Source: a virus
Lineage: Duplodnaviria; Caudoviricetes
Virus record (IMG/VR): IMGVR_UViG_3300025572_000381
Location: 1 to 51,293 of that record
DNA length: 51,293 nucleotides
Strand: one strand, 5' to 3'
The notes beneath the pieces were generated by a model. The model did no database searches, was not told the origin of the DNA, and saw only the letters and a program-made list of their open reading frames with translations. A program made the position numbers and the translations under genes. Positions 25,924 to 49,800 of this stretch are shown in pieces (the stretch's first letter is position 1; each line of letters starts with the position of its first letter).

Positions 25924-26552
25924 TTCGCACTCCGTGCCAGCGCATCCAGGCAGAACTGGCTCCAGGATTCAAACTTGTCGCGGCGTTCCAGCAGCCACGA
26001 CACTGGCTGGAACCCGCACTCGGTGTCGGGGTCTTCCTTGAGTGTCACCCGCGGCTCGCTGAGCCGATAGCGGTGCACGATACCCAGGTGGACCCGGCCA
26101 ACCTCCGTGGTGTCGTCGTTGAGCAGCCCCAGCAACGACGTGAACACGACGTCCGCGTCGATCTCGATCTCCTCGGCCAGCTCCCGCTTCAGTCCCTCGT
26201 GGTACGGGTTGGTGCCGGGCTTCAGTCCGTCGTCGCTGCAGATGTGCCCGCCGACCCCGATGCTCCACTTGCCGTGCAGGCGCTCCTCGCCCTGCCACTC
26301 CCGGCGAACGTAGTAGAACACCCGCATCTTTTCCCGCTCGCCATGCACCAGCACGACGTAGGGGATCAGCTGCTTCCAGCTGGGGTCATTCTCGGCCTCC
26401 GAGCGGGGCAGGTAGGCGAACTTGCCGCCCTGGATCAGGCCTTCCCAGTACGGCCGGTAGTTGTCCGTGAAACCCTGGAAGTATCCCAGCGCGTGCAGGC
26501 GGCTCGTGGGTACAACCAGCACCTTTTCCTCGGCGACTTCAACTAGTGCCAT
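25920..26552 (-). CDS. NUDIX-family phosphoesterase (COG4112/YmaB-like)
   Basis: AENDPSWKQLIPY, RLHGKWSIGVGGHI, GLKRELAEE, GRVHLG and ESWSQ motifs. Confidence 0.9.
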   Translation of the reverse strand: MALVEVAEEKVLVVPTSRLHALGYFQGFTDNYRPYWEGLIQGGKFAYLPRSEAENDPSWKQLIPYVVLVHGEREKMRVFYYVRREWQGEERLHGKWSIGVGGHICSDDGLKPGTNPYHEGLKRELAEEIEIDADVVFTSLLGLLNDDTTEVGRVHLGIVHRYRLSEPRVTLKEDPDTECGFQPVSWLLERRDKFESWSQFCLDALARSAK

Positions 26553-29500
26553 GGGTCGTCTCCTCCTCCTGAACAGGTTGACTCAACAAAACCTTGGGAA
26601 CCTCGTGTCGGGGCAGGTGGAACCGGAACCCCGTCGGGCGGTGTGTCAGCCCGTAGACGTAAGGGTGGTCATCGCTGTCGATGAAGAACTCGTCAGGGCG
26701 CGACGCGATCAGCGCCCGCGCAATCTGGGACTTGTCCCGGTAGCGCCCCTGGTCGCTCAGCTGCTTCAGCCGAATCAGCTGTTGTAGAGGGCTGAGGCCG
26801 GGAGCCACCAGGGAGTCCTCGGAATCTTCCAGCAAGCCGGCCTGCTTGTGTTGCAGCTTGCCGATGTGACCAAACTCCACACCGCGCGCGAGCGCGGGTA
26901 CGAAGCTGGTCCCCTCCTCGTCGCTGACCGCGCCACGGTGCGTCGCGTCGAGGAGAGATTTCTTGAGACCCGAACCGTACATGCGGGTGAGCGGGTCCGG
27001 ATCGTGCTGCAGGCTGTACATGGCCCGCACCGGCTCGGGCACGAACGGAGGAGGATCGCGGTGGGTCTCGACCTCGTTGATGCCGAACTCCTCCAGCGTC
27101 TTGATCACGCTGGGACGCAGCTTCGTCCCGATCGTGTAGTGCAGGTAGGGCCGTTCCAGGTACTGGCCCGCAGCCTGCCGCGGGCTGAGCTTCTGCGAGC
27201 CTTCACGCGGCTTCCAGCGGCGTTCCAGGGCGTTGTATCCGACGATGTCGTCGGGAAGGTAGTCCTCCCATTCGTCGGTCATCTTCACGTGGTCGATCAG
27301 ACCGCGAGCCACGAGCTCGACGTTACGCCGGTGCGCGGTGATTCCGGCGTCGCGCATCGCTCCGACCATCGCCTGCACGAAGTATCGCCGCCCCTCGCCA
27401 ATTCCTTTGTGACGGATGATCTCCGCCGGGTGCGGTACGCCGCTGGTCAGCACGTCTCCTGCTTCCACCACGTCTCCCGGCTTCACCTTGAGCGTGGCAG
27501 ACTCGGGAACGTAGTGCTTTTCACCGTCGATGTACAGGTAGTGACCGCCGGCAGGTGCGGGCTGGATCCCACCCACGGTGCCATCCTTCTGGGCGTGAAC
27601 GGCGGCTCCCTGGAACGAGGAGGGGAACTGCACCAAGGCGTCCAGGAGTTGGAAGCCGGAGACGGTCTTGGCCTCACCAGCGACGCCGCCGCTGTGTTTG
27701 GAGCTATTGGAGACGATCAGCCCGTTCTCCAAGACAAAGAGGTGGTCTGGGTGATCCACCTCGATGTCGTAGGTGGGCAGTTCGCCCAGGTACTCCTGTC
27801 CAGTGCGGCTGCAGCGGGCATACTGGACGTTCTTCGACGGTACACAGCCGAGAAGCCGGGCGTCATCTCGCCGGCCGCGGAGCGTTAACTCCACTGACTC
27901 CGGTAGGACTGCGCTAAACTCTGCGCACTTGGTGCCGACCGGCAAGATGCGCGGGACGGAGTTCCAGCGTTCGCCGGAGCACGTCCACTTCATCGTGATC
28001 GCCAGGATCTTGTGGTCGAGGGTACTGTCGAGATGCAGAGCCTTAGGATCCTGACCCTTGCAATACCGGAACCACGTGCGATAGCAGGGTTTGGGTCCGT
28101 TGTCGAATGCACGTAGAACCCGGACAGGGAACGCTCGGGCGGACGTGTCAGCGCCGAGCACGTAGTCCCCAGGCCGGATCTCCTCGATCGGCTTTACGGA
28201 GCCGTCGGCCATCCGGACCTTGGTGCCCTTTACCAGGCAGAGGCTCCCCTGGGAGATCGGTTCGGAGATCGCCTGGGCAGCCGTCATTCCCGTCAGCTCG
28301 CCCACGGAGGGCAGCCTACCGGTTTCCCGCACGCCCACGTCCCGCGCGAGCACACCGCCCTCGGCCGGCCCGCCCAAGACCGGGCTGCGGACCAGGATCC
28401 GCTTGTACCCACGCCGGGAGAGATCCCGCAGAATCTTGGGCGTGAGAATCGTGTTCCGCGGATAGCCGCCCACCGGCGCAGCCAGCAGAGCGCCCTCGTT
28501 GTCCTCGTCGTCGGTATCGACGGGCAATCCCTTGGTCGGAGGCATCACCTCCTCGTCGTCCTCGCCGACAACCACCAGGCGGTGAGCCAGCTGCGCCAGC
28601 TGTTTGCCAAAGAAGCCGGCCGAGGCCGTCGAGTTGGAGACGATCAGCCCGCTGGCCAAGCAGAACATGTGCGAGTCGCACTCGACCTCGAGATCGAACG
28701 TGGGCAGGTCGCCAAGAAACTCCTCGGACTGGAACGTAAGCGCGCACTCGCGGTTGGCAGAATCGCCGGACAGGTCGGAAGGGCCAGCAGCCCGCCACCC
28801 GTAGGCCACGTACTCCTGCTTGGCCGGGTTCTTTCGCTCCTTGGCCTCTCGCAGGGGAATCAGTTGCGGTCCGTACCGTGACCGAGCCTGCTTCTGAGCC
28901 TTGATTTGCGCGAGAACCTTGTGGTCCTCAGTAGCGGTCAGCTCCACAAAGGCGGAGGATTGTCCGGTTCGGAACTTCCAGCGGTAGCAGGGCCGCAGCC
29001 CGTTGTCGTAAACCCTGACGACGCGCGTGGGTGATAGTCGTCCCTGGAAGTCCGCCCCCATCACCATGTCCCCCGGCCGGATGTGCCGGATCTCCTTGAC
29101 TGACCAATCGGCCATCAAGACTTTCTCGCCCGCATAGATGCAGAGCTTCACGTCGATGACGCCCTTCCGCGCCCCGTAGGCTCCGGACCAGTACTCCAGC
29201 GGGCTGAGACCTTCGGAGTAGTTCTTGCGCACCGGCAGCGGGATCGGCCGGTCGCGGTGGTCGACGTAGAGCAGGTCGCTGCCCAGCAGCGACGAAAGGT
29301 TGGCGGGCTTACCGCGGGCCCCGCTGAACACCTGCATCGCCAGCGGGTTCTGCTCGGCCAGCGCTTCCTCGTAGACTTTCTGCTGCTGTTCCTTCTGGTA
29401 CTTCTGTGCCAACTCCAGCAGCTTCTTCTCGCGCTGTTCGTCCGTCAGAGAGTCGTCGTCAAGAATCCGCTCGACCTGGCGGTCGAGACTACGACGCAGA

Positions 29501-29751
29501 GCAATCGAGTAGGGGGTGCGGCGGAGGTGGCGGATTCCGAAGGAGTTACCGCCGGTCTCGTACGCCACCCGCCGAGCCACCTGCATCAGGTCGTGAGCGA
29601 TCTCCCGATAGCGATCAGGAAACCGCTCCGCGACCTCACGCAGCAGCTGCTTAATCCCCTTCGCGTCCAGAATTCGCTGGTAGTCCCGCAGCTCCTTGGG
29701 GAGAGCCCGGTTGATCAGGACTTGTCCGACCGTCGTCACACGCTTCGCCAT
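26539..29751 (-). CDS. rpoC: Phage multisubunit RNA polymerase beta' C-terminal part, two inteins
   Basis: TTVGQ, SGARG, NYSEGLSPLEY..GARKG (bridge helix), GMTAAQAISEP..KHSGG (trigger loop) and HRRNVELVAR are all collinear with the RpoC C-terminal half. Confidence 0.95.
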   Translation of the reverse strand: MAKRVTTVGQVLINRALPKELRDYQRILDAKGIKQLLREVAERFPDRYREIAHDLMQVARRVAYETGGNSFGIRHLRRTPYSIALRRSLDRQVERILDDDSLTDEQREKKLLELAQKYQKEQQQKVYEEALAEQNPLAMQVFSGARGKPANLSSLLGSDLLYVDHRDRPIPLPVRKNYSEGLSPLEYWSGAYGARKGVIDVKLCIYAGEKVLMADWSVKEIRHIRPGDMVMGADFQGRLSPTRVVRVYDNGLRPCYRWKFRTGQSSAFVELTATEDHKVLAQIKAQKQARSRYGPQLIPLREAKERKNPAKQEYVAYGWRAAGPSDLSGDSANRECALTFQSEEFLGDLPTFDLEVECDSHMFCLASGLIVSNSTASAGFFGKQLAQLAHRLVVVGEDDEEVMPPTKGLPVDTDDEDNEGALLAAPVGGYPRNTILTPKILRDLSRRGYKRILVRSPVLGGPAEGGVLARDVGVRETGRLPSVGELTGMTAAQAISEPISQGSLCLVKGTKVRMADGSVKPIEEIRPGDYVLGADTSARAFPVRVLRAFDNGPKPCYRTWFRYCKGQDPKALHLDSTLDHKILAITMKWTCSGERWNSVPRILPVGTKCAEFSAVLPESVELTLRGRRDDARLLGCVPSKNVQYARCSRTGQEYLGELPTYDIEVDHPDHLFVLENGLIVSNSSKHSGGVAGEAKTVSGFQLLDALVQFPSSFQGAAVHAQKDGTVGGIQPAPAGGHYLYIDGEKHYVPESATLKVKPGDVVEAGDVLTSGVPHPAEIIRHKGIGEGRRYFVQAMVGAMRDAGITAHRRNVELVARGLIDHVKMTDEWEDYLPDDIVGYNALERRWKPREGSQKLSPRQAAGQYLERPYLHYTIGTKLRPSVIKTLEEFGINEVETHRDPPPFVPEPVRAMYSLQHDPDPLTRMYGSGLKKSLLDATHRGAVSDEEGTSFVPALARGVEFGHIGKLQHKQAGLLEDSEDSLVAPGLSPLQQLIRLKQLSDQGRYRDKSQIARALIASRPDEFFIDSDDHPYVYGLTHRPTGFRFHLPRHEVPKVLLSQPVQEEETTHGTS
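27706..28239 (-). mobile_element. Mini-intein (178 aa) in the trigger loop
   Basis: QGSL|CLVKGTKV..STLDHKI..TYDIEV..LIVSN|SSKHSGG; no endonuclease motifs. Confidence 0.92.
28633..29142 (-). mobile_element. Mini-intein (170 aa) in the bridge helix
   Basis: DVKL|CIYAGEKV..ATEDHKV..TFDLEV..LIVSN|STASAG; no endonuclease motifs. Confidence 0.92.
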
Positions 29752-29807
29752 ACCAGCAGCTTAGCGCGTGCACGGTCGTCCAGGCTCCTGCAGTTCTAGG
29801 GGCGCCG

Positions 29808-30947
29808 CTAGACCTCTACCGGGTGCCCATTGCGGCTGGCCAGAGTAGCCGCCTGTCGTGGTAGGCTCTCAGGCAGCTCCAACGACTGAGCGGCCTCCTC
29901 CAGGGAAACCCCTGCTTCCCGCAGCTCGACCAGGCGCATCAGCTGGTCGTAATTGACCTTCCGCTCGCGCGCCAGCTGACACCACAGCGTGTCCCCAAGG
30001 TACGCCTGCAGCACCTCAGCGGGAGGATTCGGGAACTCGCGTACGTAGCGGAAGCGGCTGGGCCGGTACCGCAGCGCGGGATCCACCTTGCTGATGTCGT
30101 TGACCGTCAGCACGAACACCACTCCGCGGTAGTCGTTCATCACCCCGTCCAAGCAGTTGAGCAAGGTGTCGAACGTGAACCCCGCCGCCGGTGCAGACCC
30201 GCCATTGTGCGACCGCACCGTCACCGGCTCGCGACCGTTGAAGTAGTTGTCGAAGTCCTCCAGCAGAACAATGCACCGGGGAGGAAGTCGAGAACACAGC
30301 TGCAGCAGTCTGGGGTTGGTCAGGTCGGAGTTCACCGAGATGACGACCAGATCCGCGCGGTTCTCCATCGCCCACCGTTTGACCATGGTTGTCTTGCCAT
30401 TTCCCGGAGGACCATACAGCAGCACACCCACCCTGCCCGCGCCGCGGGTCAGCACTTCGCTCACCGCTTGGTCCATGTCCTGCCAGACCGATGGCGGTTG
30501 AATGGGGGGACGAAGCTCTTCGTGCAGATGCCCCAGCTTTGACAGACTCCAGCTGTCGGCCAGCCAGACGCAAATACCGTCCTGCCTCTCCAGCTCGGTC
30601 AACCGCTCCGTGAGCAGCTTTAGCAGCCGTCTCCGGAAGAGGCGAAGCGTATGCACGGTGGCCACCACGTCGGTGGCAGCCACGCCCGTGTGCAGGGTGC
30701 GCTCGTGACTCACCAGCTTCAAAGGGCAGAACCCCTTGGGCCAGGCCCACATCGCCAGCTCCCAGGGCGACTGCCGGAGGCGCGCCACAGAGATCGACTC
30801 GTGCGCGATCCAGTGGCGCTGAGTCCGTAGGTACTGCCAGAGCGACTCGTACAACGGCTCGTCCAGGCGGACCGTATGGACGCAAAAGGCACGCAAAGTG
30901 GCCCACAGGGCGAGCAAAGAGCCGCCCAGGGTCAGAAGATACGACAT
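29808..30947 (-). CDS. AAA+ ATPase, BCS1-like, with N-terminal hydrophobic anchor
   Basis: LLYGPPGNGKTT, LLEDFD, TLLNCLDG and DPALRYRPSRF motifs. Confidence 0.9.
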   Translation of the reverse strand: MSYLLTLGGSLLALWATLRAFCVHTVRLDEPLYESLWQYLRTQRHWIAHESISVARLRQSPWELAMWAWPKGFCPLKLVSHERTLHTGVAATDVVATVHTLRLFRRRLLKLLTERLTELERQDGICVWLADSWSLSKLGHLHEELRPPIQPPSVWQDMDQAVSEVLTRGAGRVGVLLYGPPGNGKTTMVKRWAMENRADLVVISVNSDLTNPRLLQLCSRLPPRCIVLLEDFDNYFNGREPVTVRSHNGGSAPAAGFTFDTLLNCLDGVMNDYRGVVFVLTVNDISKVDPALRYRPSRFRYVREFPNPPAEVLQAYLGDTLWCQLARERKVNYDQLMRLVELREAGVSLEEAAQSLELPESLPRQAATLASRNGHPVEV

Positions 30948-30965
30948 GTTGAAGCCTCCCCAGGA

Positions 30966-32234
30966 CTACCAGCGGCCAGCAGCCACCTGACCGTGGTCGG
31001 TCGAAACGAAGTCCCCCCGCTGCTCCATCAGCTCGAAGTACGCCTTGATCTCACGGGAGGCGTCCTCGCGGTTAGCCAATCCCAGGTGCGGGTCGGCGAT
31101 CTCACGCTGATAGGTGTCGGGATCAGGCTGGATGCCGATCGGCTCCAGGATCTCGCTCTCCTTATCCGGGGGCGAGACGTAGACGATCCACCCGACGGGC
31201 CGCTGGTTGGCGCCCAGCTTGACGCGGGTGTTGCGCTGCAGGCCGCCTGTGGTGTCGAAGTACAGACCCACGATCCGCTCCATGGAGAGCGAGAAGAAGT
31301 GCGTGTGGCCCGAGAGCACACGGCGATAGTGCTCGTGCGGCTGCATATTGCGTTGCTTGGTCAGCAGCTCGTCCTTGACCGCGTCGATGAACGCCGGCGA
31401 GTTGGGCGAGTTCTTGCTGTAGCCAAAGCCGTGACGTACCAGCACGTTGTAAGTGCCGCGGTACGCCAGGTTGATGGTCATCGAGTCCCAGTGCAGCTGG
31501 AATTTGAGCGACTCGATGTCCTCGTTGAGCGAACGCATCATGTAGAAGAGCGACTCGGTCAGAGACACCGAGCCGTGGTAATCGTGGTTGCCGCGCATGA
31601 TGTGCCAGGTGATCGGCACTTCCGGCAGGCGCTCGCGGATCTGCTGCAGCAGCCTCCGAGCTTTCATGGCTCCCACGATCAGCTGCTCGTGCACGTCGGA
31701 GGTGACCATGTCGAGGTCCTGCTCCTTGTACACGCCGCGACCGGCGATCCAGTCGTCGCCGGCCACGATCTGCACCTCCTGTGGCTTATAGATGTCGATC
31801 AGGTCCAAGACCTTGGCCTGCATCGCGTTGCCACAAGAGAGCAGATGGTTTGCGTCCGCGTAGTGGTGATCCGAGGCCCGCAGGGTGAACCGGCCCCCCA
31901 GGGCCGAGGCGGAGGAGCGCTGGGACCAGGCCAGTCGCATGCGGAGGCTGGCGACCTCTTCCTCCAGTTCGCGGATTCGGTCATGAGGCCTGGTGTCCAC
32001 CGGCGAGTGCATCGCTGCCGACTGGAGCACCCGCATCACTTGCCGCCGCTGCTTGTCCTTGGGGGCCTCCTCCTTGGCCTCCTTCTTGGACTGATGCCGC
32101 GTGTGGTGGTGCCAGTAATAGGACCGCGCGGCAATCCCCAGCTTCTGATCAACCTCCTTCCAGGTGAGCCCCTGCTTCCGTAGCTGCTCGATTTTACGCA
32201 CCGTCAGCGCAGGATTTTTGGCGCTCCGTGCCAT
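30966..32234 (-). CDS. Calcineurin-like metallophosphoesterase with N-terminal HTH/coiled coil
   Basis: SDHH, AGDDW, RGNHD, RHG and SGHTH motifs; N-terminal LRKQGLTWKEVDQKLGI. Confidence 0.8.
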   Translation of the reverse strand: MARSAKNPALTVRKIEQLRKQGLTWKEVDQKLGIAARSYYWHHHTRHQSKKEAKEEAPKDKQRRQVMRVLQSAAMHSPVDTRPHDRIRELEEEVASLRMRLAWSQRSSASALGGRFTLRASDHHYADANHLLSCGNAMQAKVLDLIDIYKPQEVQIVAGDDWIAGRGVYKEQDLDMVTSDVHEQLIVGAMKARRLLQQIRERLPEVPITWHIMRGNHDYHGSVSLTESLFYMMRSLNEDIESLKFQLHWDSMTINLAYRGTYNVLVRHGFGYSKNSPNSPAFIDAVKDELLTKQRNMQPHEHYRRVLSGHTHFFSLSMERIVGLYFDTTGGLQRNTRVKLGANQRPVGWIVYVSPPDKESEILEPIGIQPDPDTYQREIADPHLGLANREDASREIKAYFELMEQRGDFVSTDHGQVAAGRW

Positions 32235-32298
32235 GCGTCTCCTCCAAAAACTCGTGCCGGCTCGGCCGGCGCGGACGACTTAGTGCCCAGACGGGGGC

Positions 32299-32592
32299 TC
32301 AGTACTCGTCCTCTTCGTCGCCGATCTCGTCCTCGACGTCTTCTTCGAGGACAGTCTCGCCGAGAAGCGGATCGACTTTCGCAGACGGCTCGGCCGGGCT
32401 CCCCAGAACCTGGATGCCGCCGTACGAGGCTACGTCCTCGCCCTTGAACTCCTCGACAGGCTGCTCGTCTTCCGGCTGGTAGTGCACCAGTTTCTCGACG
32501 TCTTCCTGCGAGACGGGCTGGGTCAGAACTTCGGGCAGGACGTCACGTTTGTGCTCGCGGCGAACACGAAAGTCGATCGGTCGGTACATCAT
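32299..32592 (-). CDS. Small highly acidic protein
   Basis: 4-bp overlap with the upstream gene; D/E-rich tail. Confidence 0.7.
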   Translation of the reverse strand: MMYRPIDFRVRREHKRDVLPEVLTQPVSQEDVEKLVHYQPEDEQPVEEFKGEDVASYGGIQVLGSPAEPSAKVDPLLGETVLEEDVEDEIGDEEDEY

Positions 32593-32852
32593 CGAGGCTC
32601 ACTAATGATCCGAGCACCAGGCGGCAAGGGCGACGTCCGCACGGAGTCAACCACTACGGTGCGCCGTACCCCCAGCGTAGCTAGTGCCCGGTTAAACTCC
32701 TTGTCCTTGGCGTGCGCCGTATAGATGGCCTTATCCGGACCGTACAGCGCCGCCACTGCTAAGGGATTGCCCAGGTCGTCGTAGATCACGACTTGTGACG
32801 CGGGCACCCTGATCGCTGGCTGGCCGGCGTCCGTCTGAATCTCGACGAACAC
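32589..32852 (-). CDS. Small hypothetical protein
   Basis: GGAGG RBS; coupled to both neighbours. Confidence 0.8.
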   Translation of the reverse strand: MFVEIQTDAGQPAIRVPASQVVIYDDLGNPLAVAALYGPDKAIYTAHAKDKEFNRALATLGVRRTVVVDSVRTSPLPPGARIISEPR

Positions 32853-33457
32853 TAGCCAGCCTCCGATAGCCTATTCAGCCAGGTGTGCTCCCCTGCCAAC
32901 GTATCAAACGCCATCTTCGGGTCGGCCGCTGCAGCGGGGTCGCCGCCGGCCGGAGCGCCCGCCCCCATGGACATGCCGGCCTGCAGGGCAGACATCGGAT
33001 CGGCGCCCGGGTCGGTAGCCTGCATGTCCGCGGCGACCAGATCCTCCGCCTTGAACGGCACGTTCAGATAGTCCAGCAGCTTGGCGATGAGCATCGTCTG
33101 ACGCTGCATGGTCGCCCGCATCAGCGCCAGCTCGTCTTGTTTGTTCGCGCCCTTGCCGCGGCCGGCCATACCGCCGCCGCCGCCGACCATACCGGACTGC
33201 TGCAGCTGCGCAGCCACCGCCTGCGCGATTGCCTGCACCGGGTCACCGGCTCCAGCCATGGGGTCGGCAGGAGCACCCATGGCCCCGCCTCCGGCAGCGG
33301 CGGGATCTCCTGGAGGCATCATCGCTCCGCCTGCGGCCGGGTCGCCGGCCGGAGGACCCGCCCCGAATCCCTCGGGCGGGACGAACGCTTGTTTCTGCCG
33401 TTTGGCCTTGGCAGCTTCCAGTGCCAGATGCAACAGGGTGGGCGAGATCTTCGGCAT
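32852..33457 (-). CDS. Gly/Pro/Met-rich protein with KQAF and KMAF motifs, probable virion protein
   Basis: Leader ends in KRQKQAF; GDPAAG repeats. Confidence 0.8.
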   Translation of the reverse strand: MPKISPTLLHLALEAAKAKRQKQAFVPPEGFGAGPPAGDPAAGGAMMPPGDPAAAGGGAMGAPADPMAGAGDPVQAIAQAVAAQLQQSGMVGGGGGMAGRGKGANKQDELALMRATMQRQTMLIAKLLDYLNVPFKAEDLVAADMQATDPGADPMSALQAGMSMGAGAPAGGDPAAAADPKMAFDTLAGEHTWLNRLSEAG

Positions 33458-33467
33458 GGATGAACCG

Positions 33468-33511
33468 GCGAGGTGCGCTAGGGACTACTTCGGCAACCTA
33501 GCGCACCTCGC
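33468..33511. repeat. Perfect 15-bp inverted repeat
   Basis: GCGAGGTGCGCTAGG (33468-33482) / CCTAGCGCACCTCGC (33497-33511). Confidence 0.9.
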
Positions 33512-33528
33512 GCGACTTGACAATAGGT

Positions 33529-34521
33529 TTAGCGCGCGTGTTCAACAGTCGGCGCGAGAGGCCCCGGGCCGACATGCTCTCCTCCCTTCTCGTGATGCTC
33601 GTGATGTAGGAACCACTCCACATCGGAACGAACAATCTCGCCGAGCCCCCGGCTGGGAGCCCAGCCAAGGACGCGCTCGGTTTCATGCCTCCCACGATCC
33701 ACCAGCTCTCGCAGCTCGCCAGCGCGTGGAGGTTCCACGCTCGTACGCACCTGAATGCCGGTAGCTTTTTCGACCTCCGCGACCACCTGGGACACCGTCG
33801 TGCCGACGCCCGTGCCTACGTTGAGCGCCAGGAAGCCCGTGTGGTCCAGCTCCAGCGCCCGACGATTCGCCTCGGCTACGTCCGCCACGTGCACGAAGTC
33901 CCGCACGGGCTCGGTGTCGGTGCCAGGGCGACCAAAGACGGGCAGCGGTTCACCTGACACGCATTTCGAGACGGCCAGCGGAATCAGGTGCTGTGGCGGC
34001 CGCTTGCGATAGCCGTGCTGGAACTCGTCCGTCATGATCGCGCCGGCCACGTTGAAATACCGCAGGGCCACGACGCTCACGCCGTCAGCCGCCGCGCAGT
34101 CCGCCAGGATCCGCTCGCACATCAGCTTGCTCCGGCCATAAGGGCTGGGCGGCGGCATGAGCAGCGTCGAAGCAGGATGCGTGTTGGACAGGGTGTAGAC
34201 CGCCGCCGACGACGCGAAGACGAGCTTCGGCACCTTGTAAGTTCGCATCCAGGCCAGTAGATCAATCGTCTGCGCCACGTTGGCGTGGTAGTAGGCCAGC
34301 GGGTCCCGCAGCGACTCCGGCACCGACGTCTTCGCGGCCAGGTGAATTACTGCGTCTGGTCGCGGCGCGTCGCCCAGGCTGAAGCACATGCGGTTGATTG
34401 GCACCAGCTCAGCGTCAGGGCGCACCAGGTCGTGGATCCAAACCTCGTACCCGTGCTTGAGCAGCTCCCAGGCGGTCGCCGTGCCGATGTACCCTGAGCC
34501 GCCAGTAATCAGAACGCGCAT
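33529..34521 (-). CDS. galE: NAD-dependent epimerase, UDP-glucose 4-epimerase-like
   Basis: GGSGYIG, HLAA..V.ES..PLAYY, FASSAAVY, YGRSK, LRYFNVAG and RDFVHV motifs. Confidence 0.9.
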   Translation of the reverse strand: MRVLITGGSGYIGTATAWELLKHGYEVWIHDLVRPDAELVPINRMCFSLGDAPRPDAVIHLAAKTSVPESLRDPLAYYHANVAQTIDLLAWMRTYKVPKLVFASSAAVYTLSNTHPASTLLMPPPSPYGRSKLMCERILADCAAADGVSVVALRYFNVAGAIMTDEFQHGYRKRPPQHLIPLAVSKCVSGEPLPVFGRPGTDTEPVRDFVHVADVAEANRRALELDHTGFLALNVGTGVGTTVSQVVAEVEKATGIQVRTSVEPPRAGELRELVDRGRHETERVLGWAPSRGLGEIVRSDVEWFLHHEHHEKGGEHVGPGPLAPTVEHAR

Positions 34522-34584
34522 GGTTATCTACTCCGAGCAGGAACTAAAGTGCCCACAGATTATGCCGCTCGGAGAGAAAGTAAT

Positions 34585-37500
34585 TTAATCCGCCTGCAGG
34601 ATCTCCACGCGGTCGTCCGCGCTGATCTCACCGCGAGCGTAGGCCCGAGCGACGTCCTCCTCATTGCGGAAGACTTTGGGGGAGCTCTTTTTATTGACGA
34701 AGGCGGAGGCTGCATAGAGGCCGGCGATGTACTCCTGGGTAGGAGCGTGCATCGGCGTCTTCATATCGGCCGGGGAGATCAGGGACTTGCTGGGAAGCAT
34801 CCGCTCGTAGGCTTCCTGCACCGCCTCAGGATCGGCCGGAACGTGATACTGTACGGCGTCACCGTCGTTATCAGCGGAGTCGAAGACCGTCACCTTGTTG
34901 ACCAAGACGAAGGTGTACGTGCCCGGCACGCGCAGGTCGTACATGTCCATGACGCCGGCGGGCTCCAGCTTGGTGACCCGCTCCCACCGCTCGTCGCTCT
35001 CCCAACGGGCAAGCAGACCGGCAGGAATCTTGTCCTTGCCCAGCCGCGTGATAATCTTGGCCAGCGTTCCGCGACCTAGTCCGCCGCTCTGCCGACTCTT
35101 GCACAGTGCCGAGTACTCGGTGAACGCCTTGGGGTCCCTCCTGCGCCCCTTGGCAGTAGCGGCCGTTCCTCGGAAGTGCGTGAGCAGCTCCTCGGCTTCC
35201 TGGACCGAAATCGGCACCAGGTCCGGGACGAACCGGGAGTTGCGAGGAGCCTCCCGCAGCCGCTGCAACTCGGCCAGCTTGGACGGCATCCGCATCGGCA
35301 GATCCAGCTGACCAAACGCGACTACCGACGGATTGACCACCCAGGCTTGCCGGCCGTGGTTGTTGGTCCGCAGGTTGCAGGCTGAGTCGACGCCCAACTG
35401 CGCCAGCAACCACACCAACTGCTCGGCGAGCAGCCGACTTTTCGTCGTGATCGTGATGTTGCTGCGCCCGCGATAACCCTCACCACAATGCCCGTCCGTG
35501 TCCAACAGACCGGCCAAGAGCCCCAACTGAAACTCTTCTGGCGCGGACCAGATGAAGTCTGGCAAGTGCTTATGCCGCGATCCGCGACCCGTCAGCGGCT
35601 CCAACCAGCGCGCGAGCTCTGCACTGCTGATCGTCAGCCGACGGCAGGCGCCCCACCCCTCTGGATTATCCTCGTCGCGGTCGTGAGGTTTCCCTGGTCC
35701 CTTGCCAAATAGCGCGTGTGAGAGCTCGGACCAAGCCCGCAGCACGCTCGAATCCGCGGCCCCGGCAAGGCAAACTCCCTTCGCCTGTCCCTTGCAGAAG
35801 GAGGGCCAGCCGTCGCCGATGACCACCCCCAGCCACCACCCCAGGTCCGCCGTAAGTGGCAGAGGCTGGCCGTCGGGGCCCGTAATACTCCCTAGCTCCT
35901 GACTGCCGCACTCCGCGGCCACAACCCGAGGCGAAAGTTTGCCCAGAGCCTCCGCCGGCGTCATCCGCCGACACTTTCCCTGCTCCGGGTCGAAGCAGTA
36001 CAGGCTGTGCGATTCGCTCACCGTCACCTGGCGGTTGCGCCCGAAGGTCACCCGCACGCCTTGCAATTGCGGATGGATGTAATAGCGATCGGGATGCTGC
36101 CAGGAGAACCCACCACTGGAGCAGTGCGTCAGCACCTCCACGTCCTCAGGCACCTCGTACGCACCAGGCTCGTCGGGCACCGGTGCGCCGTGCGGAAAGT
36201 CCGCCAGGTCGACAATCCTGAACTGCCCGCCCTGCCGGATGGGAACGCGCCCCACGCACGAGAAGCCCTTGTAAACCAGCGGCGGCAGTTGCACGGCGCT
36301 ACCCTTCACCAGCTTGGGCCGGAACGCCAGCACGCCGAACTTGTGCAGCACGGGAGCCCGGTCCATGATGACCGGCCGGACCTGCATCTCCTCCTCCAGC
36401 GCCTTGCGCGCCCGCGGGGTCTTGGCTTCGACCTCACGCAGAGCGTCCATGCCGGCCATGCCGGCGCGCCGCAGCCGGCGAATGACGTAGGTCTTGTAAA
36501 CGTCCCAGGCTCGATCCTCTGGCAGACCGAGAGTGTCCATGTCGAAGTCGGGGTTCGGCAGGATCACACCACGGCCCACATGGTCCACCGCCGAGCCGAT
36601 CAATTTATACTGCACCACTCCGTGCTTGGGTGAGCTGCCAAAGACGCCGGCCAACAGCCCCTTGACCCGCTTCTCCTGCAGTTTGGGATTGAGCGGGTCG
36701 CCCAGGCCGGTGACCGCCTTGAAAGCGTTGTAGAGAGCCAGACGCTCGTCGCCCACCTCGTCGCCAACAACCTCCTTCATCGCCTTGAGGTTCTCGTTGG
36801 CGTCCCACAGCTCCTTGTAGAGGAGGTTGGCGTCGGCCACGATCGGAGCCTTGCGGGGGCCGGTCATCATGGAGATCGGCCGGAATACCGGCGGCAGCAC
36901 CGGCACGGAGTCCAGCACCCACTCGCGCGGGTGAATTTTGAGATCCTCGGCGGCCTTCAAATAGGACAAGCGACGACGGGCCGCATCCTTGGCCGTCTTG
37001 GTGCCGGAGCGGATCTGCTGGCGAGCCAGGGCGATCTCTTTAGGCAGGTCGATCGCGTCGAGCGCCTTGGCGATCGCCTCCATACCGGTCCGGCCATGGA
37101 GCTGCTCGCGGCCCGCGATGATGTTCTCAAGCTGCTTGCCGGTCAGCCCCAGCACGCGACGGGCCGGCTCCTCCATGACCGGGTTGAGCATCGGCTCGTG
37201 CAGCTTGATCCGAGCCCAGCGGGTTGAATTGTGAGAGCCGGTCAGCCGCGGATCAAACAGACCGCCCTTCACCGGAGTCAGGTCATCGTCCAGCATGACC
37301 GTCTCGGCGTTCTCGAGATACCGATCGCCGGCCAGCTCGTCGATGTCCTTGTTGGTGAGGGCCATGAACTGGGTACGCCGGCCCTCGCGGACCGGGTTGA
37401 TGCCCGAGGCCCGCAGCGTGGCCAGGAACTTTTCGTAAACCAGCGGCACCTTGGGCGGCGGCGGATTGTAGCCCGCCATGAACGCCAGCCAGTACGGCTC

Positions 37501-40500
37501 GTTGCGCTGGCCGCGGACCACGCCCGCATCGCGCAGCACATGGTAGGCGCCGTGCGAAAGCAGCGCGTTGACGTTGAGCAGGGCAACCCGCTTGCTGCCG
37601 TGCTCGCCGCCCTTGGTGGGCGTGCCTTCGGCGGTGTACCCGCCGGTACCGCGGCCTTGACCTTTCGATTCGGCAGTGTGGAAGAGCTTCATCATCCACC
37701 GCACGCCGGTCATGACACCTGGGATCTTGCGGCCCAGCACCGGGTCGTAGATGTCCTCCAGGTCCGACACGCCATGCTTGCGAGCCTCAGCCTCGGCGAA
37801 CTCGCGAAGGTCCTCGATGTCCTCGAAGTCGCGGATCTTGTACGGTTTGCCGGTCTTCTCCGCGACCTTGCCCAGCAAGGCCTCCACGTACTGCGCCGGG
37901 TTGACGCGGCTGATCATGCCGTGCGGGTTGAGCAGCAGGTCGAACGGCCGGCCGTCCTTATCCCGAGGCATGTCGCGGTCGGGCACGATCTTGGCGGTAA
38001 CCCCTTTGTCTCCATACCGGCCGGAGAGCTTGTCGGCCTCCCTCAGCGGCGAGTAAGCGCGGGTCAGAACGAAGGGACCCTTCTTCGTCTTGATCACGTC
38101 GACCACTTCGGCTTCGTCGTGGTGGTCCCAGGTGACCGAAGCGTCGTGGAAGGCCGGCGCGCCCTTCTTGTGGACCTTGCTGGCCGAGTCATGCCGCGGG
38201 CGGGCAGCCAGGATGATCGGGTCGCCCTCCTTCAGCCGCGTGCCGGGCTTGACCACGCCGTCCTCATCCAGCTTGGACAGCGTTTCCTTGTCGTAGCGGC
38301 TGGGGAACAAGCTGACGAACGCGTTCTTCCCGAGCTTGTACTCCTTGGGGTCCAGGTCCAGCGAGTGCTTGTAGTAGTGCTCGCTCGTCAGTTTCCGGGC
38401 GAACGACTCCGAGACGACGTTGGCGTCTTCGAAGTTGGTGCCCAGGTAGGGGACGTAGGCTACTCGGGCGTTGACTCCGAGGGCGACTCGCCCTTGGTCA
38501 TCCGTATAGTTCGAGCGAGCCAGTAGGGTCCCAGGCTGGACGGTGTCACCAACGGATACCAGGGGCGTGTTGTGGAAGCCGGTTTTTCGGGCGAGTCCGT
38601 AGTGGTGGTAGAGTTCGTAGGTTTGGGTGGTTCCATCGGCCTGCTTGACCTTGATCTCGTCGGGGGTAACAGCGATGACGCGGCCGGCAGCCTTCGCGCG
38701 AATCGCGCCCAGCCGCTCGCCGAGTTTTTCCTCGTAGCTGACATCGTCCTCGTCCGGGACGGCCACCTGAACCAGGGGCGCCTCGGGGTTCTTCAGCGGA
38801 AGCGCCTGGCTCAGCATGCGGCTAGCCATGGCCGCGCGCTGACCCTTCAGCGCGCTCTTAGCCGGCACCAGGTTGTTGAGCGTCGAGAACGCCTTCTCGA
38901 AATGCGGCAGGACGAAGTCCACCTCGTCGCGAGGTACGAAGCGGATCTTGCCGCCTTTGAGCGCGGGCACACGCTTGGTGCGCCACTTCAGCATTTCCGG
39001 AAATGCAACCGTGGCGTCGGCCAGGTCAGACGCGGACTTCCACACCGGCTGGCCCGTGCGGGCGTCGACCAGGCGGGTGTACACCTGGCGGTCCGGTCCC
39101 TTGCGGGTGTTGGACGCGAAGTAGACGTCGACACCGGCTCGTTCGCTGTTTCCGGACCAGTGACCAACCGTGTCCCCGCGCCGCACATAGAGCAGGCCGC
39201 CAGGGACCGTGGCGCAGTACACCATTCCGTCGTAGTCGACGGTGTAGTAGTGGTTGGTCCGGGAACGGTGCAGAACCTGGTGGGCGTTCTGCTTATGCAT
39301 GTGCACCACGTACAACCCGCCGGTGGTCGACTGCGGGCGGTCATCCTTCTCGAACACCACCCGACTCGCAACACCTAAGCCGAAAGCCAGCAGGTGTACC
39401 TGTTCGGCTAGCGTCGGACTGGTCGTGCAGAACTGCGTACGGTCTCCGCGACGATCCTTACGCCCCTCGCCAAGCATGAGCGACTGGAACAATCGACGTC
39501 GAGCCTCCAACGGGCCGCGGAGCATCTCGTCGGGAAGGGAGCGTTCCGGGCTGTAACCGACCTTCTCGAAGATCGTGGTCAGCTGCTTACGGCTGATATG
39601 GAAGGCGCGACCCGCGTAAGTGTGCGGAATCCCCAGCTCTCGCAGGGTTCGGCTAATTCGCTGGCAATTCTCTGAGTTCTTCTCCCAGGACTGGGAAATC
39701 CGAACCCGGTACTGATGTCCCCGCGTCCGATGGTGGACGGTTCCCTCGCCAACAACCCAGCCGACCAGCTCGTACCACGGAGCAGCGCTAACACGGTCAA
39801 TAACCCGAGTGGTAGGGCTATCCTTCGGAATAGCGGTCAGTTCTACGTACTCGACGGCGTCACCGTCGCAAGGCTGGAAACCGCCTGACATTACCTTGCG
39901 GTTCTTGCCGTGAACCTGCTCCGCCGTCTCGAAGCGGAACCGCGCGCCGTTATGCAGCGGGGCAACCCACAGCCGGTGGTTAGGGGTCACCAAGTAGGAG
40001 ACCCGCCCGGTATCCGCACCGTACATCGTTCCGCGATAGCGCTGCCGGATAATCCGTTCAGGGCGGTGGAACTCCAGCTTGCCGTCGACCAGGCAGGCGA
40101 ACTCGTCGTCCTCAGTGACATCCGGCCAGCGCTTCCAGCCGTCCCGCGTCATGACTTCCGTCTGCGAGTCGAAGCACTCGGGTGTCCGGGTTGGGTCAAT
40201 CAGCGCGAAGTGCGTGGGCTGCACCGAGCGGGCTTCGGAGGGGACGGCGGAAAGGGACCCGATACCGCCCTGCCCCAGCCGAGTGACGCGCGTCATCTTG
40301 TCCAGCACTTCCAGCGGATTGATGAACTCCGCCGGCTGAGCCAGGCCGCTGGAAGTGATCACCTCGTCCAATTGCTGCTGCAGCGGCAGCGAGGGCAACC
40401 CGCCAAGGTTCCCCCTGAGTGTGGCGTTCCAGAGGTACTTGCGACGCAGGCCACCGGCGTCCAGCCGGATGCGTTCTTCGAACAGGTCCTCCGGGCCCAG

Positions 40501-40752
40501 CACCATCTGGTTGGGCATCGCGTCGCGGTCGGTCAGCTCAACCGACTCGCCCCGGCTCAGTGCAGCCAGCGTCCGCGTGGTGTCCAGCAGCACGTCGAGG
40601 TTGAGCCCTGTGTAGGGTTTCCCCAACGCCCGCTGCATCACGCCCGGGTCGAAACGGAATTTCCCCAGCGCGTCCTGTAGACGCGTGCGGTATTCGGGGT
40701 CGACAACACCGTCGACCTCGCCCGTCGCCGTCCCTGGCGTTTCCTGCTTCAC
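34585..40752 (-). CDS. rpoBC: Phage RNA polymerase fusion: beta (central/C-terminal) plus beta' (N-terminal/catalytic), two inteins
   Basis: Beta motifs: NPL..RLGQGG, TPE, NFED, DKLSGRYGDKG, NPHG..SR, KLFH. The junction is near LRASGINPV/FMALT (about 37360-37410). Beta' motifs: GLFD..G, PVLPP..RP, DRAPVLH, ADNDGD, PTQE..GLY. Confidence 0.96.
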   Translation of the reverse strand: MKQETPGTATGEVDGVVDPEYRTRLQDALGKFRFDPGVMQRALGKPYTGLNLDVLLDTTRTLAALSRGESVELTDRDAMPNQMVLGPEDLFEERIRLDAGGLRRKYLWNATLRGNLGGLPSLPLQQQLDEVITSSGLAQPAEFINPLEVLDKMTRVTRLGQGGIGSLSAVPSEARSVQPTHFALIDPTRTPECFDSQTEVMTRDGWKRWPDVTEDDEFACLVDGKLEFHRPERIIRQRYRGTMYGADTGRVSYLVTPNHRLWVAPLHNGARFRFETAEQVHGKNRKVMSGGFQPCDGDAVEYVELTAIPKDSPTTRVIDRVSAAPWYELVGWVVGEGTVHHRTRGHQYRVRISQSWEKNSENCQRISRTLRELGIPHTYAGRAFHISRKQLTTIFEKVGYSPERSLPDEMLRGPLEARRRLFQSLMLGEGRKDRRGDRTQFCTTSPTLAEQVHLLAFGLGVASRVVFEKDDRPQSTTGGLYVVHMHKQNAHQVLHRSRTNHYYTVDYDGMVYCATVPGGLLYVRRGDTVGHWSGNSERAGVDVYFASNTRKGPDRQVYTRLVDARTGQPVWKSASDLADATVAFPEMLKWRTKRVPALKGGKIRFVPRDEVDFVLPHFEKAFSTLNNLVPAKSALKGQRAAMASRMLSQALPLKNPEAPLVQVAVPDEDDVSYEEKLGERLGAIRAKAAGRVIAVTPDEIKVKQADGTTQTYELYHHYGLARKTGFHNTPLVSVGDTVQPGTLLARSNYTDDQGRVALGVNARVAYVPYLGTNFEDANVVSESFARKLTSEHYYKHSLDLDPKEYKLGKNAFVSLFPSRYDKETLSKLDEDGVVKPGTRLKEGDPIILAARPRHDSASKVHKKGAPAFHDASVTWDHHDEAEVVDVIKTKKGPFVLTRAYSPLREADKLSGRYGDKGVTAKIVPDRDMPRDKDGRPFDLLLNPHGMISRVNPAQYVEALLGKVAEKTGKPYKIRDFEDIEDLREFAEAEARKHGVSDLEDIYDPVLGRKIPGVMTGVRWMMKLFHTAESKGQGRGTGGYTAEGTPTKGGEHGSKRVALLNVNALLSHGAYHVLRDAGVVRGQRNEPYWLAFMAGYNPPPPKVPLVYEKFLATLRASGINPVREGRRTQFMALTNKDIDELAGDRYLENAETVMLDDDLTPVKGGLFDPRLTGSHNSTRWARIKLHEPMLNPVMEEPARRVLGLTGKQLENIIAGREQLHGRTGMEAIAKALDAIDLPKEIALARQQIRSGTKTAKDAARRRLSYLKAAEDLKIHPREWVLDSVPVLPPVFRPISMMTGPRKAPIVADANLLYKELWDANENLKAMKEVVGDEVGDERLALYNAFKAVTGLGDPLNPKLQEKRVKGLLAGVFGSSPKHGVVQYKLIGSAVDHVGRGVILPNPDFDMDTLGLPEDRAWDVYKTYVIRRLRRAGMAGMDALREVEAKTPRARKALEEEMQVRPVIMDRAPVLHKFGVLAFRPKLVKGSAVQLPPLVYKGFSCVGRVPIRQGGQFRIVDLADFPHGAPVPDEPGAYEVPEDVEVLTHCSSGGFSWQHPDRYYIHPQLQGVRVTFGRNRQVTVSESHSLYCFDPEQGKCRRMTPAEALGKLSPRVVAAECGSQELGSITGPDGQPLPLTADLGWWLGVVIGDGWPSFCKGQAKGVCLAGAADSSVLRAWSELSHALFGKGPGKPHDRDEDNPEGWGACRRLTISSAELARWLEPLTGRGSRHKHLPDFIWSAPEEFQLGLLAGLLDTDGHCGEGYRGRSNITITTKSRLLAEQLVWLLAQLGVDSACNLRTNNHGRQAWVVNPSVVAFGQLDLPMRMPSKLAELQRLREAPRNSRFVPDLVPISVQEAEELLTHFRGTAATAKGRRRDPKAFTEYSALCKSRQSGGLGRGTLAKIITRLGKDKIPAGLLARWESDERWERVTKLEPAGVMDMYDLRVPGTYTFVLVNKVTVFDSADNDGDAVQYHVPADPEAVQEAYERMLPSKSLISPADMKTPMHAPTQEYIAGLYAASAFVNKKSSPKVFRNEEDVARAYARGEISADDRVEILQAD
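34879..36261 (-). mobile_element. Intein (about 461 aa) with LAGLIDADG endonuclease, atypical termini, abutting the catalytic DxDGD
   Basis: YKGF|SCVG..VTVSESH..WLGVVIGDG..LAGLLDTDG..MYDLRVPGTYTFVL..TVFD|SADNDGD. The start could be Ser (36261) or Cys (36258). Confidence 0.88.
39148..40176 (-). mobile_element. Intein (343 aa) with LAGLIDADG-like domain in the beta TPE motif
   Basis: TPE|CFDSQTEV..VTPNHR..VGWVVGEG..SLMLGEG..VYCATVP..WSGN|SERAG. Confidence 0.92.
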
Positions 40753-41453
40753 GTCCGGAGGAACCTCTGCAGTACCTTCTTCAAGTTAGCCGCGTTGTGG
40801 TGGGGGTAGTTCGCCTTCCAAAGCTCCTCCCCCCACGCCTCCTTCAATTGTTCGTCGGTGGCGCCCAGCGCGCGCAAGAGTGGCATCAGCGGAACCTTGG
40901 CCTGCCCCAGGCGGATGTAGAACACGCCGGACGCCGGGTCCAGGAAGTAACGGTGCGCGAAGCCTTCGCGCGGCATCGTGTTGACGTGCGCCTCGATCTC
41001 GCCGTTTTCCCGCACACGTGTGTAGATGCCCGGCTTGAGCCGCATCTGGTTGGCGATCGAGTATTCGGACCCGCGCTGGATCACGGTACCTCGTGGGGTC
41101 ATGTACGGGACGCGAGCCAGCAGCTGCTGGCGACTGTCGATCACCTTGCCTGACTGGTTGTCAATGAGCTCCCAGGTGCCGCGCAACCGTCGGCCAACGG
41201 TTTCGCCGGTCAGGTTGGCAATGCGCTGCCGCCGCAAGGGAACGTCCTCTGGGTCCACGTACTGCACGTTAGTCAGCCGCAGCGTGTACCGATCGTTGGA
41301 GATCGGCTGCACCGACTGAGCAGCCTTGAGCACCGCGTCAAAGATCGCCCGCCTGGTATCCGTCGGATCCGCAAAATCCCGGCCCGGAGGAGTGTCCGGA
41401 ACGTTCGCCAGCGGGCTGCCTGTCGGGTTGAGCAGGTCGCCTACAGGCATCAC
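40749..41453 (-). CDS. rpoB: RNA polymerase beta N-terminal fragment
   Basis: LARVPYMTPRGTVIQRGSEYSIANQMRLKPGIY aligns with RpoB [32 protein letters not shown]. Confidence 0.88.
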   Translation of the reverse strand: MMPVGDLLNPTGSPLANVPDTPPGRDFADPTDTRRAIFDAVLKAAQSVQPISNDRYTLRLTNVQYVDPEDVPLRRQRIANLTGETVGRRLRGTWELIDNQSGKVIDSRQQLLARVPYMTPRGTVIQRGSEYSIANQMRLKPGIYTRVRENGEIEAHVNTMPREGFAHRYFLDPASGVFYIRLGQAKVPLMPLLRALGATDEQLKEAWGEELWKANYPHHNAANLKKVLQRFLRT

Positions 41454-42247
41454 GGCTGCTGTTCCTTGTCGTCACGCGGTACATCCAGCGTCAGCCGTGG
41501 CGGCGACTCGTAGCGGCGGACGTCCGCGAGCCGACGCTCGGCTTCTTCCAGAATCCGCTCGCGATTTTGCCTGCGGGCAGCGCCGTAGGCCAAAGTTCCC
41601 GTGAGCAGACCAGAAGCCAAGGCGTACAGGGCGTAGGCGCCCTTCATCTTATTGACGAGTTCGCTCAGGTAGTTGGCCTTCTTCTGGTACAGGTCGAACA
41701 GACCATCCAGGGTGACGACTACCGGAGACACGTTATCGGACGCGGTCTTCGACCCATCGTCGTCGTGCTGTCCGGCGATCGCCTTCAGGAACGCCTGACG
41801 GGCCGCCTCCGTGTCCGCCTGCAGCTGAGACTTGCGCGCCCGGTTGACCAGCCAGTCGACCAGATTGTAGGCGGCTACCGCTCCACCGCCCAGAGCCAGT
41901 GGACCCATCACCCAGTGCGCCGGGTAGTTCCAGGGATCACCGACCGGTTCTACCTTCCTGACAGGGGCTTTCGGCGCTCCGTCTGAGGCCTGTTTACCGC
42001 GCAGTGCGGCGGGCAGAGGCACGCGGACCTCCTCCTCGGGGGTGGCCCGTCGGTCCTGCTGCAGGTTGCGACGCAGCAGGTTGACCAGGCCGATCGCGCT
42101 GCGGGCCCCGGCACCCGCCAAGGCGCCGGTCAGCAGCAAGCGCTTCCACGACTCGATCGCCGCCTGGCGGTCGAAAGGGCTGGTCGTCGCGATCTTCAGA
42201 AGGGGGCCAGCTTGGGCGTCCCGTCTTGCATGTAGAATTCGGTCCAT
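41450..42247 (-). CDS. Hypothetical protein with three hydrophobic helices separated by KxA motifs
   Basis: KIAT, KQAS, KTAS and KKAN motifs; 4-bp overlap with beta-N. Confidence 0.8.
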   Translation of the reverse strand: MDRILHARRDAQAGPLLKIATTSPFDRQAAIESWKRLLLTGALAGAGARSAIGLVNLLRRNLQQDRRATPEEEVRVPLPAALRGKQASDGAPKAPVRKVEPVGDPWNYPAHWVMGPLALGGGAVAAYNLVDWLVNRARKSQLQADTEAARQAFLKAIAGQHDDDGSKTASDNVSPVVVTLDGLFDLYQKKANYLSELVNKMKGAYALYALASGLLTGTLAYGAARRQNRERILEEAERRLADVRRYESPPRLTLDVPRDDKEQQP

Positions 42248-47009: not shown

Positions 47010-47813
47010 CTACGGACTCCTACGTAGCAGGGGAGATCCATTCCTCTGAATTCCGCCGAGCCGTTGCGACTCGCGGATGATCCACCGGTACCCGGTCTCC
47101 AGCGACCGCTGGTCGTGGTCCAGGTGGTAGACAAGGCAGTCAAAGTCTGCCCACAGCTTGCAACCGGCCCCCCGCATACGCCAAGCAAGCTCCTGATCCT
47201 CTCCTCCGTACACGTTGAACCGTTCCCAATAGCCACCCGTCTGCTCCAGACGCCGCGTGGGGAAGCTCTGCTGGAATCCCCACGCGGCCCGCCAATGCGG
47301 CAGCTCGAAGCGGCGTTGGCCTGTGCGCAACAGCCGGCACATGGCGCGGTAGACGCCAAAATCCATCTCGAATCTGCGATCATCCGCGACCACGAAAGGC
47401 TCCAAGTCCTCAATCTCGACAGAGAGGGACTCCACCTTTCGCTGATCGACATGCTTGCGGCGACCGCAGATCACCACGTCTTGTGACCCGTATGCGACGT
47501 GGCGCTCTACCAGATCCCTGGCTGGTACACAGTCACCGTCCACCACCAAGATCCTGTCGTCGCTTCGGCAGTGCCTGATCCCCAGGTTGCGGGCGGCCGC
47601 CAGGCGAAACTTGCTCGTCTGGGGTTCGAGATAGTGGTAGTAGATGTCCAGCTGGCCCTGGTACTTGTCGGCTACATCCGACAGCTCTCGTGCCCCGCCG
47701 TCGTTCACCACGTGCAGGTCGAACTTTTGCCATGTCTGCCTGGCAAATCCAGCCAGTACCAGGTCTAAGCTATGCGAGTCCTGGTAACAGGTTACGACGA
47801 CGGAAAGCAACAC
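47010..47813 (-). CDS. Family 2 glycosyltransferase with GT7C-like tail
   Basis: SVVVTCYQ, VVNDGG, AARNLG, VDGD, GGY.ERF..YGGED and YHLDH motifs. Confidence 0.92.
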   Translation of the reverse strand: MLLSVVVTCYQDSHSLDLVLAGFARQTWQKFDLHVVNDGGARELSDVADKYQGQLDIYYHYLEPQTSKFRLAAARNLGIRHCRSDDRILVVDGDCVPARDLVERHVAYGSQDVVICGRRKHVDQRKVESLSVEIEDLEPFVVADDRRFEMDFGVYRAMCRLLRTGQRRFELPHWRAAWGFQQSFPTRRLEQTGGYWERFNVYGGEDQELAWRMRGAGCKLWADFDCLVYHLDHDQRSLETGYRWIIRESQRLGGIQRNGSPLLRRSP

Positions 47814-49798: not shown

Positions 49799-49800
49799 GC

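Follow-up and report, generated by a model that had tools for sequence, protein, structure and literature searches.

Among described RNA polymerases (RNAPs), the closest to the one analysed here are those of the cultured Salmonella phage Arash (OQ632216) and of the Vibrio phages D69, D148 and D181 in GenBank. In all four, beta and the N-terminal part of beta' form one open reading frame (ORF), beta' is cut at position 550, and its C-terminal half is a separate gene several genes away, giving a two-chain layout (in Arash, gp206 of 1525 aa and gp216 of 606 aa). The available passages of the Arash paper label the two proteins merely beta and beta' and do not describe the fusion; they report that, of all proteins in particles purified on a gradient, gp206 had the highest spectral count and that gp216 and the sigma factor gp10 were also detected (PMC10585845). 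Here we describe a variant of this layout in a 51,293-nt stretch of DNA, called the window throughout. It is the virus record IMGVR_UViG_3300025572_000381, has a GC content of 64% and an estimated completeness of 26%, and comes from an uncultured phage with a genome of about 200 kb. Its RNAP is about 31% identical to those of the Arash-like phages and has the same fusion, the same beta' cut and the same loss of the beta' zinc-binding domain, but beta, uncut in those phages, is here divided once more, in the gate loop, and four inteins are present where Arash and D69 have none. We consider it probable that the three genes, A, B and C, specify the phage's own bacterial-type RNAP core, that their products likely form one working enzyme, and that an ancestral beta-beta' fusion was likely cut twice, before a TTVG motif (a cut shared with Arash) and then, recently, in the gate loop. 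The RNAP features are as follows.

40749..41453, minus strand: gene A, the N-terminal piece of beta, 234 aa from a GTG start (233 from the next ATG), assigned by BLAST and mapping to E. coli
40749..40752, minus strand: the A|B junction GTGA, in which the stop of A overlaps the GTG start of B by 4 nt
34585..40752, minus strand: gene B, the remaining beta and beta' 15-550 in frame, 2055 aa (1251 aa spliced)
39148..40176, minus strand: intein 1, 343 aa, C...N ends, LAGLIDADG type, after the TPE motif (beta 565)
near 37390, minus strand: the beta-to-beta' fusion point inside gene B
34879..36261, minus strand: intein 2, 461 aa, LAGLIDADG type, directly before the catalytic motif (after beta' 457)
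34858..34878, minus strand: the catalytic motif SADNDGD, equivalent to NADFDGD with its three Asp retained
26539..29751, minus strand: gene C, the C-terminal half of beta' from TTVG (beta' 572), 1070 aa (722 aa spliced)
28633..29142, minus strand: intein 3, a 170-aa mini-intein in the bridge helix (beta' 788)
27706..28239, minus strand: intein 4, a 178-aa mini-intein in the trigger loop (beta' 932)

By BLAST, gene A matches E. coli beta 52-228, spliced gene B matches beta 399-1336 and then beta' 174-550, and spliced gene C matches beta' 713-1298; the TTVG at residue 6 of gene C aligns with the TTxGR motif of solved beta' chains. These alignments confirm that the C-terminus of beta runs in frame into the N-terminal part of beta' and that beta' is cut before TTVG, and removal of the four inteins (343, 461, 170 and 178 aa) yields chains of 234, 1251 and 722 aa, the three-gene layout and spliced sizes given in an original prediction made from the sequence alone. 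Compared with E. coli, the enzyme lacks beta 228-346, 934-1037 and 1129-1182 and beta' 66-97 and 942-1127, and the cysteine count across the 2207 extein residues of A, B and C is zero. The RpoB and RpoC catalytic motifs that had been claimed are borne out at every catalytic residue checked: E813, D814, K1065, K1073, R1106 and H1237 in beta, and R425, D460/462/464, R731, Q929 and H936 in beta'. With the DxDGD triad, the beta lysines K1065 and K1073, the bridge helix and the trigger-loop His all in place, the window RNAP is, judged by these residues, a two-barrel multisubunit DNA-dependent RNAP.

Intein-less alleles in other runs skip a net 1029, 510 and 534 nt (343, 170 and 178 codons), exactly the lengths predicted for inteins 1, 3 and 4, so the edges of these three are directly confirmed. 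Those of intein 2, which from its sequence appears to have Ser as first residue and Asp as last, come from alignment only, with no intein-less allele among the variants listed in four runs. An intein occupies the same site, at the catalytic motif, in one other locus (L002). Intein 1 is polymorphic, some strains having a shorter allele that lacks 174 aa of the endonuclease region (39307-39833).

The cut that separates A from B corresponds to about residue 372 of E. coli beta, a position within the gate loop (beta 368-378), which touches sigma 1.2 and the non-template DNA (PMC7822876). E. coli RNAP without the gate loop is reported to form shorter-lived open complexes in vitro, and the loop is called essential for growth. 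An intact relative modelled with AlphaFold, whose fold matches bacterial beta, has a variable coil flanked by two helices at the cut position. The junction has no indel in contigs of six runs from six other studies, with strain differences nearby, and a stand-alone 233-aa gene A protein occurs on 13 contigs (locus L099, 100% identical to the window, was not counted as independent). The extra beta cut is genuine. A complex model of A with residues 2-192 of B scored 0.75 against 0.00 for the best control, its runs sharing at least 83% of contacts with a partner predicted local distance difference test (pLDDT) of at least 72. This mark was attained by 116 of 157 solved pairs and 2 of 215 mismatched pairs, and here it may stem from likeness to solved beta chains, on which ground a pass is expected. 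The two halves of beta are thus predicted by modelling to assemble. Engineered splits of beta and a beta-beta' tether are tolerated by E. coli RNAP.

Three pieces are not the architecture of the lineage. With the central extein of B as query, 582 of 7995 scored proteins reached E<=1e-20; among the 120 listed, A and B lie in one chain of about 1475 aa in 117, C is part of that chain in none, and NADFDGD is present in only 58. Viral loci gave the same picture. We compared 69 of them (3 from a first scan and 66 from the best 80 of 359 matches), and A was joined to B in all 68 where A was seen, beta'-C being a separate ORF in 61 of 61. The lineage form is therefore the two-chain one, whole beta fused to beta'-N with beta'-C apart, and the gate-loop cut is a tip-level event. 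The independent, minimised phage RNAP lineage of the original prediction survives in so far as the enzyme is non-cellular, phage-encoded and minimised, but the three-piece split is not its design. Loci in genome bins (26) span many phyla, four of them coming from three planctomycete bins, and indicate no single host.

Single-chain enzymes are also found. In a scan seeded with mReC-like beta', whole beta and beta' lay in one ORF in 22 of 80 viral loci, and the same was true of two genome-bin loci. Single-chain proteins related to the window clade (L090, L092 and L166-L220; 22 loci) are about 2050-2400 aa long, with one of 3591 aa. Trees were inferred from 65 rows under LG+G4 and from 34 rows under the C20 mixture, all without phiKZ/AR9, Helicobacter, Wolbachia and cyanobacteria; support is by the Shimodaira-Hasegawa-like approximate likelihood ratio test (SH-aLRT) only, and the branches quoted with a value are starred ones. 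In both trees the window lies deep in the two-chain clade with Arash (98). That clade is nested among single-chain forms within a larger fused lineage (99 in the 34-row tree) whose first branch is single-chain, and the mReC rows form a separate clade (99). Approximately unbiased (AU) tests on 22 rows under LG+G4 rejected monophyly of the single-chain forms (p-AU 3e-7), a grouping of the two-chain clade with mReC (p-AU 1e-9) and a single clade of the fused lineage and bacteria (p-AU 4e-5). The beta' zinc-binding domain is absent from 40 of 40 fused-lineage rows and present in 8 of 8 mReC or mReC-like rows, in Yersinia phage YerA41, in Cobetia phage Carin-5 and in 12 of 12 bacteria; a second zinc site was lost later, in the window's sub-clade and two single-chain rows, and is retained in Arash and D69. 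Because the two-chain forms nest among single-chain ones and all are without the beta' zinc-binding domain, the order of events was likely fusion first and then repeated fission, before TTVG and later by beta cuts at the tips.

Intein removal, alignment and a tree with cellular and phage RNAPs, the check named with the original prediction, thus place the window with Arash and outside the bacteria. No nesting in a cellular clade is seen, and the DNA is a virus record; by this evidence the window RNAP is not cellular. Its beta C-terminus fused to beta'-N, its beta' cut before TTxG, its tree position and its deleted zinc-binding domain make it, on sequence grounds, a variant within the Arash-like clade, from which it departs in that its beta is not intact from the N-terminus. 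The Arash and Vibrio phages further share homologous capsid, sigma and gp218-like genes with the window's clade.

A gate-loop cut recurs in a distant sub-lineage. A profile search returned 47 short beta-N proteins. Most came from short contigs, ended at scattered points of the gene and were taken to be fragments, and only P0121, P0175, P0177 and P0181 were used; no genomic context could be assigned to P0119, which starts just after the gate loop and lies on a contig of 126 kb. Three distant beta-N proteins (32-35% to A) end at the same gate-loop position, and at 2 of 20 loci of the sub-lineage (L224, L225) a free beta-N gene is followed by unrelated genes, five other loci of the 20 being cut near beta 617-640 instead. 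On contig G026 (L225, L245, L249, L251) the enzyme is split into four genes, which occupy both strands in a scrambled order. Besides beta-N there are a middle piece of 229 aa, encoded 12 kb away in the opposite orientation, a beta-C/beta'-N piece of 1007 aa with DTDGD, and beta'-C. There and on contig G025 (L224), beta is cut at the gate loop and a second time near 617-640. A tree built on the N-terminal region of beta unites five distant rows in a clade (100) and puts the window elsewhere, with intact relatives (95); four of the five fill less than half of the columns. Since the starred branches force two changes, the gate loop was likely cut twice independently. Another three-piece form is seen at L231-L234 and L238, where beta 1 to about 620 is one gene and the rest lies several kb off. 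At L095 an in-frame TAG stands some 15-20 residues downstream of the gate loop, with a second break and one altered catalytic Asp, and we treat this locus as possibly a damaged copy. The RNAP genes of L003, L008, L012, L014, L016, L018 and L024 have interruptions with overlapping homology that recur at the same sites and are likely group I introns.

The three-piece form is hence one tip of a chain-number series and not a new enzyme class. The novelty of the pattern, which the original prediction made depend on its absence from characterised phage groups, fails for the two-chain layout, which stands in GenBank for Arash, D69, D148 and D181, and holds for the extra beta cut, absent there. What is new is this cut in the gate loop, its independent repeat and the one-to-four-chain series; no description of a fused or re-cut RNAP layout appeared in the literature searched, subscription journals being mostly beyond its scope.

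Other multisubunit RNAPs resemble that of the window in part. The mReC RNAP is likewise phage-encoded and alignable to cellular beta and beta' and branches outside bacteria (Weinheimer and Aylward 2020, PMC7481178). The two confirmed mReC contigs compared here (L144 and L151, of 97) differ in that beta and beta' are whole and unjoined, both zinc sites are kept and cysteines number 28-35; the window RNAP does not cluster with them and has SADNDGD instead of NADxDGD. As for the mReC capsid family PF07068, Arash gp226, the capsid of the clade, has a weak PF05065 match only, and the window has no capsid gene. The mReC contig 3300000243 gave a low-scoring beta' match that might be a fused layout. 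The phiKZ and AR9 enzymes also have a multi-piece beta/beta' core without alpha or omega, with beta' cut after the double-psi beta-barrel (DPBB) domain, in the parts of PMC7598289 that describe them. They differ in that beta and beta' are unfused, the enzyme has four to five chains, there are two sets of paralogues and no sigma gene is recognisable, and they are far more divergent, AR9 covering 32% of the query; against a type that is never fused, has at least four chains and lacks sigma, the window has the fusion and its relatives a sigma. The early statement that phiKZ-type enzymes are split differently is right for the beta cuts and the fusion, but the beta' cut lies in the same general region. 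YerA41 and Carin-5 have bacterial-type phage beta and beta', in YerA41 as three genes with a split beta', but they lack the fusion, keep beta uncut and both zinc sites, and form a separate long branch; beta' is cut at 618-637 in YerA41 and at 550-571 in the window. Helicobacter and Wolbachia RpoBC share the fusion point, theirs being full-length, cellular and accompanied by alpha and omega. Cyanobacterial RpoC1/RpoC2 is cut in the same neighbourhood of beta', but about 14 residues downstream, and is cellular with alpha and omega.

Could A and B be made as one chain by a programmed -1 frameshift, leaving the usual two-chain enzyme? The two genes are adjacent and in order, the frame of B is open for 11 codons upstream of its GTG, and A and B are joined at all 68 close loci. 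We nevertheless think this unlikely. The 33 nt upstream of the GTG contain no X-XXY-YYZ slippery site, and the GTGA overlap, of a 4-nt kind shared with four more of the 22 gene pairs checked in the window, fits re-initiation together with a Shine-Dalgarno-like GAGGT upstream of gene B (-6.5 kcal/mol). Gene B also begins with about 10 residues beyond its relatives, so that the joined linker would have 62 residues against 44-57 in 73 measured relatives; no source for this extra leader was found elsewhere in the window or the loci. The same cut moreover separates unlinked genes on G025 and G026, and frameshifting cannot join the G026 pieces because they are out of order on both strands. It is more improbable still that the break reflects misassembly or the inactivation of a decaying gene by mutation, even though no close relative has it and damaged copies such as L095 do occur: the same junction comes from six independent studies with strain-level single-nucleotide polymorphisms around it, gene A stands alone on 13 contigs, and catalytic residues are intact. 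The variation is mostly synonymous (27 of the 32 extein variants in the three genes on other strains' contigs, among 40 displayed of 180 variant rows).

A different order of events, in which the split pieces are ancestral and the single- and two-chain forms are later fusions, is the view given for phiKZ-type enzymes in PMC7824862. Phage RNAPs do group outside cellular ones in both trees (99), and phiKZ/AR9, YerA41 and cyanobacteria all have beta' cut after the DPBB. We regard this order as very unlikely for the window, whose intact relatives enclose it in several successive starred clades; the beta' cut points just given differ from one another, the gate-loop cuts need two separate changes, and the single-chain forms are paraphyletic around the two-chain clade. 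A twice-cut ancestral fusion thus remains our preferred reading, and several points weigh against it. Junction evidence consists throughout of assembled contigs and not raw reads, and only 1 displayed variant lies inside gene A. The order of fusion and fission leans on one long-branch row, L166, the AU tests are limited to one model and 22 rows, and row compositions differ, so that the grouping of all phages against cells may be long-branch attraction. Arash has 5 cysteines and the second zinc site in aligned columns, unlike the window's sub-clade, and its authors allow for carry-over of enzymes into particles, 116 proteins having been detected, helicases and reductases among them, in the available passages of their paper (PMC10585845). 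Finally, the phage's own sigma is not seen, and sigmas are known only from relatives.

If the twice-cut fusion is a working enzyme, gene B would be made by re-initiation coupled to the stop of gene A, the four inteins would splice out, and A and B would together restore the lobe and the protrusion. The assembly of a beta/beta' core in the absence of alpha is described in PMC7598289 as an unsolved problem of phage RNAPs; here the covalent beta-beta' link might take over much of the assembly role of alpha and omega. The original prediction had recognised no alpha, omega or sigma in the window. For the first two this extends to four near-complete relatives and Arash, where neither the alpha N-terminal domain nor omega was found (controls matched in 14 of 14 genomes); rpoA model matches in 2 of 3 relatives covered the alpha C-terminal domain only, in ORFs of 105-123 aa (L109, L110), which were rejected as an assembly subunit, the N-terminal part being missing. 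Sigma is another matter. Homologues of the gp10 sigma and the gp226 capsid are present in 4 of 4 near-complete relatives and in neither case in the window record; because that contig is 26% complete, the absence of sigma is probably an artefact, and the gene by this comparison would lie outside the contig. The Pfam PF04542 sigma model gave no match in three relatives, the Arash gp10 query alone finding the sigma. A gp10-like sigma encoded elsewhere in the genome would then select promoters. We lean towards the RNAP being packed in the virion for early, host-independent transcription.

The genes around the RNAP include the following.

29808..34521, minus strand: six ORFs between the beta' halves, encoding a sugar epimerase, proteins of 201, 87 and 97 aa, an exonuclease-like protein of 422 aa and an AAA ATPase
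32589..32852, minus strand: the 87-aa cysteine-free gene, which in 60 of 61 relatives likewise separates the two RNAP genes
26542..26862, minus strand: the non-RNAP tail of gene C, about 107 aa after HKQAG, with a homologous domain in other ORFs of 25 related loci
17705..20134, minus strand: an 809-aa conserved gene, homologue of Arash gp218, a member of the Arash particle proteome

Six ORFs do separate the halves, but to call all of them unrelated, as was first done, does not suit the 87-aa gene, given its conserved place. Its protein is beta-rich, absent from Arash, D69 and the single-chain loci, and belongs to no Atlas family; as a candidate stand-in for alpha or omega its model (pLDDT 88) matched no known fold, the best Z in 48,161 chains being 3.3 (root-mean-square deviation 4.2, 52 residues aligned). 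The 809-aa gene had no usable Atlas match. Long C-terminal extensions of beta'-C are frequent (L009, L012, L014-16, L019, L024, L046, L052, L054), reaching 600-850 aa in several. A KQAG motif precedes the 107-aa tail, and K-x-A motifs like it are present in neighbours that lack cysteine (41450-42247, 32852-33457, 12518-13666); these are perhaps maturation-protease sites. Elsewhere lie a TnpB/Cas12f-like IS605 gene (23068-24261) and a cluster of glycosyltransferase, sulfotransferase and radical SAM genes (47010-51236), which with the epimerase (33529-34521) has a possible role in virion or DNA modification.

A broader reading, which we offer only tentatively, is that these enzymes belong to a very large, undescribed phage lineage with a ladder of fusion and then fission (one to four chains), without alpha, omega or the zinc ribbon and often without cysteine, in which the gate loop was severed twice because a virion-delivered enzyme with a private sigma no longer depends on a closed loop, or because packing and ejection are easier with smaller chains. 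If that were true, the self-assembling modules of a minimal RNAP would be marked out by the natural cut sites. The window also provides a case of split phage RNAP genes that would be derived from a fused ancestor and not primitive, which bears on the claim that split phage enzymes predate cellular ones. A natural series of one to four chains, readily alignable and with a cultured member, makes the rules of assembly and the roles of the gate loop, zinc sites and cysteines testable, and a compact, cysteine-free, alpha-independent RNAP could serve as a tool.

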